A stretch of DNA of 862 bases from a phage: sequence record AF039873.1, one strand, 5' to 3'. Below are positions 6 to 834 of this stretch, one piece after another. The stretch's first letter is position 1; the number at the start of each line of letters is the position of its first letter. The notes beneath the pieces were generated by a model. The model was not told the DNA's origin, made no database searches, and saw only the letters and a program-made list of their open reading frames with translations. Position numbers and translations under genes: made by a program.

Positions 6-320
6 TCAGTGCGTTAAAACCACAGCGTACCCTGAAACACGGATAGTTAATTGAGGGTATTTTTCAGGATGTTTCTGTGCATCCAAAAGCTGATCACGAC
101 TTAACACATTGACATTTAGGTGTTGACCACCTTCAATTTGAGGGGCGACTTCCACTTTGACTTCACGAAAGGATTCGGGGTCAAAATGAGGTGTAATACC
201 TTCTAGATCTTCAACTAGAACTTTTTGTTTAAGTTCACCATCTTTAGAATATAATTGAGTAATCTGATTATTATGAACAATATTAATTACGCCAGATTTA
301 AGATTTTGATACGCTTTCAT
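6..320 (-). CDS. grcA: GrcA/YfiD-like autonomous glycyl radical cofactor (pyruvate formate-lyase C-terminal glycyl-radical domain protein), 104 aa, unusually short C-terminus
   Basis: Minus-strand ORF from the six-frame track. The segment [11 protein letters not shown]...[18 protein letters not shown] matches, from memory, the conserved glycyl-radical domain of E. coli GrcA and the PflB C-terminus, including the RVSGY signature (Gly codon at 30-32). Start placed at ATG 318-320 (Met26 of the track ORF) because AGGAG sits 5 nt upstream and 334-395 is occupied by a tRNA. Alternative starts GTG 393-395 and ATG 387-389 lack a convincing RBS. Stop TGA at 6-8. Confidence 0.85.
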
Positions 321-333: not shown

Positions 334-409
334 TGGTAGTTAGTAGTGGATTTGAACCACTGTAGTCGCTCCGTATGAAGGAGGTGCATAACCACTCTGC
401 CAACTAACT
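334..409 (-). tRNA. tRNA with anticodon CAT (elongator Met, or Ile2 if C34 is lysidine-modified), 76 nt, CCA encoded
   Basis: Hand-folded cloverleaf on the minus strand: acceptor AGTTAGT/ACTAACT (7 perfect bp), D-loop containing GG, anticodon loop TTCATAC (U33, CAT, A37), T-arm AGTGG-TTCAAAT-CCACT (5 perfect bp, canonical T-loop), discriminator A, encoded CCA at 334-336. Irregularities: D-stem has only 3 Watson-Crick pairs (G13.A22) and C.C at 27:43. Not initiator-like: 1:72 is paired and the anticodon stem lacks three consecutive G-C pairs. Confidence 0.8.
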
Positions 410-507: not shown

Positions 508-584
508 TGGTACTCCGGGAGGGATTTAAACCCCCGATCTCTCGGTTATCAGCCGAGTGCTTTAGATCGCTAAGCTACCGAAGT
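508..584 (-). tRNA. tRNA-Ile (anticodon GAT), 77 nt, CCA encoded
   Basis: Hand-folded cloverleaf on the minus strand: acceptor ACTTCGG/CCGGAGT (7 bp, one G.U), U8, D-stem GCTT/AAGC, anticodon stem CTCGG/CCGAG (5 perfect bp), anticodon loop CTGATAA (U33, GAT, A37), variable loop AGATC, T-arm GGGGG-TTTAAAT-CCCTC, discriminator A, encoded CCA at 508-510. Confidence 0.85.
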
Positions 585-627
585 ATTAAAATATTACATC
601 ACACACTGTCTAAGTAAGAAGTATAAT

Positions 628-643
628 GGGAACTTAAGTTCCC
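628..643. repeat. Perfect 16-bp palindrome GGGAACTTAAGTTCCC (6-bp stem, 4-nt loop if folded)
   Basis: The sequence equals its own reverse complement. It lies about 45 bp upstream of tRNA-Ile in the minus-strand sense. No U/T-tract follows on either strand, so it is not a canonical intrinsic terminator. Confidence 0.6.
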
Positions 644-834
644 AGCCCTAACTACTTCTACTCAGTTCGAGGTACTTGACGAACACACCATAAATCATCC
701 TAAATCGGGTGCCCTAGCTGGTCATGATCCTTTGGGAAATACCTGTTGGACCGTTACTACTTTAACCCTCAAGCGATCTTACTAATTGTGTAACGAATCC
801 ACCGGTTTTACACACCTCTTGGGTCCCATCATAG

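Follow-up and report, generated by a model that had tools for sequence, protein, structure and literature searches.

The tRNA's elbow serves as a contact surface for several partners, as RNase P, the ribosomal L1 stalk and T-box leaders stack on its face and ribosomal protein L5 contacts it (PMC4810234, PMC3664808). It is already established by mutagenesis that the near-universal tertiary pair G19:C56, which locks the elbow, can be exchanged for other Watson-Crick pairs. Human mitochondrial tRNA-Ser(UGA) with the mutation G19C regains serylation when the pair is made A19:U56 or C19:G56 (PMC10412605), in Aquifex tRNA-Leu U19:A56 restores leucylation (PMC2377443), and in Thermus pre-tRNA-Gly A19:U56 leaves cleavage by the protein-only RNase P PRORP3 unchanged (PMC4797305). 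The TruB consensus, GUUYRANYC, permits U56 (PMC7912444). The literature that we searched, with the T5 tRNA sequencing papers of the 1980s outside its scope, contained such engineered mutants and general reviews only, and no description of a natural A19:U56 pair in T5 or other phage tRNAs.

We analysed a stretch of phage DNA of 862 bases, referred to as the window, that encodes a tRNA-Ile(GAU) with A19 and U56. The gene is the previously annotated tRNA-Ile1 of phage T5. We consider it probable that this is a functional tRNA-Ile gene of a T5-like phage (Tequintavirus), situated in the early tRNA cluster, and that its A19:U56 is a compensatory, near-neutral and structure-preserving swap which was fixed in the ancestor of the T5-like phages.

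The tRNA-Ile gene and its surroundings

The window aligned to phage T5 (NC_005859 27707-28483) with 96.8% identity over positions 4-775, and some 440 records of T5-like Escherichia and Salmonella phages matched it. Every feature of interest, namely the tRNA-Ile(GAU), a tRNA-Met(CAU) and a 104-codon ORF, lies on the minus strand (table 1). The tRNA-Ile gene runs from 584 to 508, and the letters quoted for it in the first-pass annotation are the reverse complement of the plus strand, with no strand stated. All 77 nucleotides are identical (100%) to T5 tRNAI1(GAU), locus tag T5t02 (NC_005859 28210-28286). This identity and the gene order, with tRNA-Met(CAU) and a GrcA-like gene next to it, place the gene in the orthologue group of T5 tRNAI1. 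A host origin was rejected, as BLAST of the tRNA-Ile against 5,426 E. coli genomes returned no match.

Table 1. Positions, strand and supporting evidence of features in the 862-base window.
Feature	Position	Strand	Evidence or remark
tRNA-Ile(GAU), 77 nt, 3' CCA encoded (508-510)	508-584	-	ARAGORN, Rfam tRNA, T5 identity and annotation
D loop AGCGAUCUA = A14 G15 C16 G18 A19 U20 C20a U20b A21; no GG; G18 = 568, A19 = 567	563-571	-	ARAGORN and Infernal
Anticodon GAU in loop CUGAUAA	548-550	-	ARAGORN; loop identical to E. coli ileV
T loop UUUAAAU = U54 U55 U56 A57 A58 A59 U60; U54 = 530, U55 = 529, U56 = 528	524-530	-	ARAGORN, Infernal
tRNA-Met(CAU), 409 to 334, encoded CCA, canonical elbow (D loop GG, T loop UUCAAAU)	334-409	-	Rfam 51.5 bits; = T5 tRNAM (T5t01)
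104-codon ORF, glycine-radical domain PF01228, C-terminal RVSGYAV motif	9-320	-	61.8 bits
Terminator-like hairpin UGGGAACUUAAGUUCCCA, then U-rich tail	627-644	-	about 40 nt upstream of tRNA-Ile 5' end

The window and the T5 locus thus have in common the sequence and orientation of the tRNA-Ile, its neighbours tRNA-Met(CAU) and the GrcA-like glycyl-radical gene, and the T5.058 region. While the tRNA-Ile itself does not differ, the flanks are 96.8% identical, and ten indels of one base each set the window apart from T5 in the T5.058 region (window 585-775, about 220 nt). Stop codons occur there in every frame and the T5.058 ORF is not intact; it may be a pseudogene in the phage of the window, T5.058 may be no real gene at all, or the sequence may be of poor quality at this place. 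T5 has no match to the window past position 775: the last 87 bases (776-862) did not align to it, and with 740-862 as query the phage collection gave no match at blastn sensitivity. The 104-codon ORF, whose start lies 14 nt downstream of the tRNA-Met, corresponds to T5.056, the GrcA-like 'autonomous glycyl radical cofactor' gene. The tRNA-Ile would then sit between a small upstream region and the tRNA-Met(CAU) with the GrcA-like gene, within the early tRNA cluster. No convincing sigma-70 promoter was found on the minus strand just upstream of the tRNA-Ile, nor any convincing promoter between it and the hairpin at 627-644. Two matches to the 'Plastid-ycf2 5'UTR' RNA on the plus strand (336-409 and 510-584, about 25 bits at a cut-off of 65.7) were dismissed as an artefact, being the antisense image of the two tRNAs.

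Evidence of activity comes from the GenBank record of T5, where an experimental note states that anticodon replacement converts tRNAI1 into an amber suppressor. Such activity implies that tRNAI1 is transcribed, processed, folded, charged by some synthetase and used on the ribosome. This in vivo activity is taken from a database annotation, which says 'suppressor' and not 'effective suppressor', and the suppressor derivative would probably not be charged by IleRS.

Fold of the tRNA-Ile and register of its elbow

ARAGORN called tRNA-Ile(gat) at c[508,584] and drew a regular cloverleaf with a 7-bp acceptor stem (one U4.G69), a 4-bp D stem and 5-bp anticodon and T stems (one G50.U64 in the latter). 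Its loops are a D loop of 9 nt, the 7-nt anticodon loop CUGAUAA with U33, a variable loop of 5 nt (AGAUC) and the 7-nt T loop UUUAAAU, followed by A73 and the encoded CCA. The Rfam tRNA covariance model (RF00005) matched over its full length (model 1-71) with 65.5 bits (E = 7e-14, gathering cut-off 29), a higher score than that of the adjacent canonical tRNA-Met (51.5 bits). The first-pass annotation had described an otherwise well-formed tRNA-Ile(GAT) at 508-584 and proposed covariance scoring as a check, and both programs indeed call the tRNA at these positions, neither of them scoring it as a pseudogene.

The elbow departs from the conserved set G18 G19 / U55 C56, since G18 and U55 are present while position 19 is A and position 56 is U. 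In the T loop the near-invariant C56 is replaced by U56, and U54, U55, the purine at 57 and A58 are retained. The remaining tertiary positions are standard (U8, A14, G15/C48, A21, U54/A58, U55, purine 57 and G53:C61). ARAGORN and Infernal agree on the T loop, which had been read as TTTAAAT with T at position 56. Infernal also gives the register that had been proposed for the 9-nt D loop without GG: it aligns the D-loop G to G18 of the model and the following A to G19, and treats 'cu' as an insertion. With a free energy of -23.6 kcal/mol the cloverleaf is at most 1.1 kcal/mol above the unconstrained minimum free energy fold. Gaps of this size are usual for unmodified tRNA sequences. An alternative fold that places a canonical GG/C56 pair, which would have spoken against the swap, is impossible, as there is no GG in the D loop and no C in the T loop; the difference of 1.1 kcal/mol is uninformative in this respect.

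The register of the D loop calls for caution. When aligned position by position to the 9-nt D loops of E. coli ileV or of the metagenomic tRNA-Ile L071, the T5 loop reads G17, A18, U19, and A19:U56 then needs a slip of one nucleotide in the D loop. Slippage of this kind was demonstrated in yeast SUP4, where U17G rescues G19U (PMC4117946). The D loops in our survey of phage tRNAs (see below) are mostly 7-8 nt long with unambiguous register, which supports the assignment of the T5 'GA' to positions 18 and 19.

Conservation, origin and covariation of positions 19 and 56

Across 17 T5-like loci the per-site divergence from the window was 1.4% for the tRNA-Ile and 0.3% for the tRNA-Met, the most conserved segment of the window, as compared with 7.1% for both the spacer between the tRNAs and the GrcA-like ORF. 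Beyond nucleotide 1, all differences in the tRNA-Ile come from a single phage, DT57C. Every copy whose T loop is intact (16 of 17) has U56, the exception being DT57C with a deletion in the T arm. The restriction of differences to nucleotide 1 and DT57C indicates that both swapped positions are held by selection. Nucleotide 1 (window 584) is the sole polymorphic site outside DT57C; it is A in T5 and the window (A1-U72) and G in 13 of the 17 loci (G1.U72). The tRNA-Ile copy of Escherichia phage DT57C (L122:1500-1574), which is annotated as tRNA-Ile, carries U33G, G49A and a U-to-C change in the D loop, and a deletion of 2 nt has reduced its T stem to 4 bp and its T loop to 6 nt. From its sequence it is likely a pseudogene.

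This copy raises the question whether the gene is decaying, or a tRNA-like gene without a role in translation, with an elbow that is just broken, having A18 and U19 in the usual register and lacking a 19:56 pair. Besides the damage in DT57C, such a reading could draw on the dispensability of the T5 tRNA region (PMC11464382), on the A and U found at positions 18 and 19 in a position-wise alignment to ileV, and on the smaller number of phage records matching the tRNA-Ile (263) than the whole window (440), by which some relatives may lack the gene; this last comparison is rough, since a window match may span just the GrcA-like ORF or the tRNA-Met. Yet beyond nucleotide 1 the sequence is invariant in 16 of 17 T5-like loci next to a spacer that diverges by 7.1%, it outscores the neighbouring canonical tRNA-Met in the Rfam model, its remaining tertiary positions are all intact and suppressor activity is annotated. 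The strict link between U56 and GA in unrelated tRNAs, given below, is a further argument for a real pair. We regard decay as very improbable, and a pseudogene reading of the copy in the window was rejected on conservation and model score.

The canonical state was found in more distant relatives. Our orthologue set comprised five lineages: Eos and Erwinia phage KEY (Markadamsvirinae), KpGranit (Klebsiella, Sugarlandvirus), Proteus phage M4H10_20 (Novosibvirus) and Vibrio phage Achelous (Ermolyevavirinae). These Demerecviridae orthologues resemble the T5 gene in their anticodon, a near-identical acceptor stem (GCUUCG./.CGGAGU), A73, the encoded CCA and their position in a phage tRNA cluster. 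In contrast to the GA of the T5-like clade, they have an 8-nt D loop, AGUYGGUA, with G18 and G19; in place of UUUAAAU their T loop is UUCGAGU in three of them, UUCAAGU in Eos and UUCGAUC in Proteus; and their T stem is ACUGG/CCAGU, which on the T5 branch was rebuilt to GGGGG/CCCUC. With GG and UUC in the orthologues, the A:U state is derived on the branch to the T5-like phages. In the tRNA-Ile(GAU) genes compared, positions 19 and 56 are both swapped in the T5-like copies with an undamaged T loop and both canonical in the orthologues of the other Demerecviridae. The MAFFT alignment of the orthologues misplaces the D-loop gap, and we did not draw column-wise pair counts from it. Among the 21 T5 tRNAs called by ARAGORN only the tRNA-Ile lacks GG and C56. 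The metagenomic tRNA-Ile L071 matches T5 almost exactly over nucleotides 10-65 but has the D loop AGUUGGCUA and the T loop UUCAAAU. A second scan of IMG/VR that left the D and T loops free returned 21 loci, 20 of them with the D and T loops of T5 and the remaining one being this canonical relative. In one of the 20 (L003) the T stem contains one additional G.

For a wider view, we fetched IMG/VR loci with the anticodon-arm pattern CTCGGCTGATAACCGAG and obtained 1181 unique phage tRNAs with ARAGORN. Of these, 1156 have C at position 56, 17 have U and five have A. All 17 U56 tRNAs lack GG and carry GA instead, as compared with 28 of 1156 C56 tRNAs without GG (Fisher p = 3e-26), and three of the five A56 tRNAs carry GU, which would give U19:A56. 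The association was not selected by the query, as 14 of the 17 U56 tRNAs are unrelated to the T5 tRNA-Ile; altogether the U56 tRNAs represent about 11 lineages and eight amino-acid specificities (Ile, two or three Arg, two Cys, Glu, Thr, Gly, Ala and Met). A direct double substitution is seen in a pair of tRNA-Met genes that are identical at 67 of 72 positions, with AGUGAUA/UUUGAUU in L072 and AGUGGUA/UUCAAUU in L002. The surveyed elbow variants scored 43-67 bits with the Rfam tRNA model and are thus not artefacts of ARAGORN. The swap usually affects one or two of about 20 tRNAs per fetched phage locus, and no G19.U56 intermediate occurs among the 1181 phage tRNAs. The first-pass annotation had put forward both that divergent elbows occur in phage tRNAs and that A19/U56 is a compensatory change; the former is borne out by the variants in this survey, and the latter gains support from the identity with T5 tRNAI1, the canonical orthologues, the conservation and the covariation across 1181 tRNAs. 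From the association in 17 of 17 U56 tRNAs we infer that the 19:56 pair of the T5 tRNA-Ile was replaced by a Watson-Crick pair of the same shape and not lost.

The loss of GG and the change of C56 to U could also be unrelated events, with only the other contacts keeping the elbow together. Yeast tRNA-Asp has been stated to do without G19-C56 (PMC4117946), and some T5-like tRNA-Val variants place A19 opposite A56. Against this stand the coupling itself (GA in 17 of 17 U56 tRNAs, GU in three of five A56 tRNAs, p = 3e-26), matched sequence pairs that differ at exactly both partner positions, and engineered compensatory pairs that restore activity (PMC10412605, PMC2377443). Of all readings considered here, coincidence appears to us the least probable.

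The tRNA-Val(UAC) variant occurs on two T5-like contigs (L045:4329-4402 and L063) and has the D loop AAUGAGA and the T loop UUAGAUU. It is identical at 70 of 74 positions to the canonical T5-type tRNA-Val (AAUGGGA / UUCGAUU) and scores 53 bits. Its elbow is non-compensated or differently paired, so that within the T5 group the pairing is not always kept. A tRNA-Tyr(GUA) on another T5-like contig (L075) has GU for GG in the D loop AAUGUCUA and the T loop UUCAAAU, an apparent U19/C56 mismatch.

Other elbow positions varied as well. In the phage locus L010 (IMGVR_UViG_3300032397_000008) 14 of 15 tRNAs have G55, with T loops of the form UGCRANY (AGC in two), and the 13 D loops examined have AG for GG (A18 with G55), so that across this phage the universal U55 (pseudouridine 55) is lost. 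Loci L011, L053 and L044 belong to this observation as well, and over the whole survey AG is present in 21 of 25 G55 tRNAs. A swapped reverse-Hoogsteen pair, A54 with U58 (T loop AUCGUUA), was present in 21 tRNAs of the survey, for instance in tRNA-Ile of L010-type contigs, and seven further tRNAs have A54 with A58. Beside the phage tRNA clusters we observed matches at Rfam gathering level to a ROOL RNA (L068:7816-8346, 250.6 bits, ending at the contig edge), a wcaG RNA (L072:10911-11008, 102.6 bits) and an abiF RNA motif (L018:8281-8317, 44.5 bits).

A cellular control fetched with the same pattern yielded 377 unique tRNAs, a small set of bacteria and archaea mixed. U56 was found in 17 of 1181 phage tRNAs and in one dubious case among the 377 cellular tRNAs (one-sided p = 0.045 with a small control), or in 14 of 1178 versus 0 of 377 when the T5 tRNA-Ile sequences and the dubious case are left out (p = 0.02). 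The enrichment of U56 in phages over this small control is suggestive. It would be unexpected under pure neutrality, and relaxed constraint together with an A+T bias could explain it. The control also contained a tRNA-Arg(UCG) with encoded CCA on a Pyrinomonadaceae MAG contig (L187), with the D loop AAAGUAUA and the T loop UUAGAGU (U19:A56), which may be part of a prophage tRNA cluster.

Possible significance of the swap and comparison with known systems

The host counterpart of the phage gene, E. coli tRNA-Ile1(GAU) ileV, is likewise 77 nt long and shares the loop CUGAUAA, A73, U12-A23, C29-G41, the 9-nt D loop and the 5-nt variable loop; 48 of 77 positions are identical without gaps. It differs in having the D loop AGGUGGUUA, the T loop UUCAAGU (G19:C56), C4-G69 and G16, where the phage tRNA-Ile has A19:U56, U4.G69 and C16. 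The anticodon stems differ too (CUCGG/CCGAG in the phage, CACCC/GGGUG in ileV), as they do in many unrelated tRNA-Ile genes. The identity set of E. coli tRNA-Ile for IleRS comprises GAU, A37, A38, A73, C4-G69, U12-A23 and C29-G41 and, in the D loop, G16, D20 and D21, with G16 reported as a determinant of IleRS editing (PMC9976931). The phage tRNA-Ile has all of the main elements (G34, A35, U36, A37, A38 and A73). Among the minor stem determinants it has U12-A23 and C29-G41 but U4.G69 for C4-G69, and in the D loop it has C16 for G16 and a U at position 20 only in the shifted register. As most of these elements are present, the tRNA would probably be charged with isoleucine.

With gene identity, fold, conservation, derived state and the statistical link between positions 19 and 56 demonstrated, the swap can be put into a structural model. 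The RNA would fold as a normal cloverleaf and L shape in which the remaining core contacts (U8:A14, G15:C48, G18:U55, U54:A58 and G53:C61) can form. The D loop would place one nucleotide before G18 and three after A19, and the outermost elbow pair would be A19 and U56, Watson-Crick paired and with the same shape as G19:C56. As the shape is the same, the elbow would retain its flat outer face, the one in contact with RNase P, the ribosomal L1 stalk and L5. The tRNA-Ile would then be processed, charged by the host IleRS and read AUU and AUC. The swap may have arisen by two compensatory changes, each a transition towards A/U, in a sequence of 40% G+C, and may have been fixed once in the ancestor of the T5-like clade, with purifying selection acting on the pairing and not on base identity. 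No special function of the swap would be needed.

We favour near-neutral, sporadic compensatory evolution because there are only one or two swapped tRNAs per locus, the T5 tRNA region is dispensable and the DT57C copy has decayed. Pointing away from neutrality are the rarity of U56 in the cellular control, the lack of a G19.U56 intermediate and the remodelling of the whole elbow on the T5 branch. The swap might be adaptive, that is, A19:U56 and the remodelled D loop might have been selected because they change how a host factor reads the elbow. Candidates for such a factor would be a defence or toxin nuclease acting on the T or D loop, a modification enzyme that requires C56, or IleRS editing via the D-loop nucleotides, given that the T5 D loop lacks the editing determinant G16 (PMC9976931). 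It is in favour of such a role that T5 tRNAs counter tRNA-cleaving defences, with tRNA-Lys acting against PARIS and tRNA-Tyr against retron Eco7 (PMC11464382), that U56 has a somewhat higher frequency among the phage tRNAs sampled than among the cellular controls, that the swap is invariant over hundreds of T5-like genomes, and that on the T5 branch D loop, T stem and T loop were all remodelled, with the acceptor and anticodon arms left unchanged. However, none of our results implicates a nuclease or defence system that acts on tRNA-Ile or on the elbow, and we found no defence nuclease cleaving tRNA-Ile in the literature searched (PMC11464382, PMC13056530). Known evasion changes lie in the anticodon stem-loop, and the anticodon loop of the tRNA-Ile is that of the host. 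Only one T5 tRNA carries the swap, as is typical for the fetched phage loci with one or two each, and an A:U pair of the same shape retains the stacking face used by elbow readers. Moreover, the TruB consensus accepts a pyrimidine at position 56 (PMC7912444), A19:U56 made no difference to a protein-only RNase P (PMC4797305), the DT57C copy is degenerate, and deletion of the T5 tRNA region is possible (PMC11464382). On balance an adaptive origin seems unlikely. The speculation in the first-pass annotation that the divergent elbow affects recognition by processing or modification enzymes or by tRNA-targeting nucleases found no support, given the anticodon loop of ileV, the tolerance of TruB for U56 and the indifference of a protein-only RNase P.

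A more specific idea, which we rate as quite improbable, is that the elbow is a second surface of escape, where A19:U56 would leave the L shape intact and yet hide the tRNA-Ile from, or make it resistant to, a host protein recognising C56, G19 or the D loop, with the candidates named above. The elbow variants U19:A56, phage-wide A18 with G55, and A54:U58 would then belong to the same pattern. If the swap was selected, the elbow would be a target to examine in the conflict between phages and hosts over tRNAs.

Under the preferred reading of a near-neutral compensatory swap, the tRNA-Ile is a modest variant of a known molecule, and the change looks like a real compensatory one. The added value is small and lies in natural evidence: in phages the 'invariant' G19:C56 covaries, as A:U 17 times and as U:A three times in 1181 sequences, which confirms that the constraint is on pairing geometry and not on base identity. 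Because of this covariation, a U56 accompanied by GA in place of GG should not count against a gene in tRNA finders and pseudogene filters. For the window itself little changes, and the recurrent elbow covariation over phage tRNAs is a useful by-product.

Two groups of described tRNAs allow a direct comparison. The nuclease-evading tRNA-Lys (against PARIS AriB) and tRNA-Tyr (against retron Eco7) belong to the same T5 cluster and also depart from the host sequence (PMC11464382). However, their protective changes are located in the anticodon stem-loop and were shown by rescue, whereas the tRNA-Ile is changed in the elbow and has the anticodon loop of the host. The engineered 19:56 swaps in tRNA-Ser, tRNA-Leu and pre-tRNA-Gly kept activity with another Watson-Crick pair, as we propose for the phage tRNA-Ile. 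In contrast to those laboratory mutants, which were studied in vitro, the swap in the phage is natural, fixed in the T5-like clade and recurrent in other phage tRNAs.
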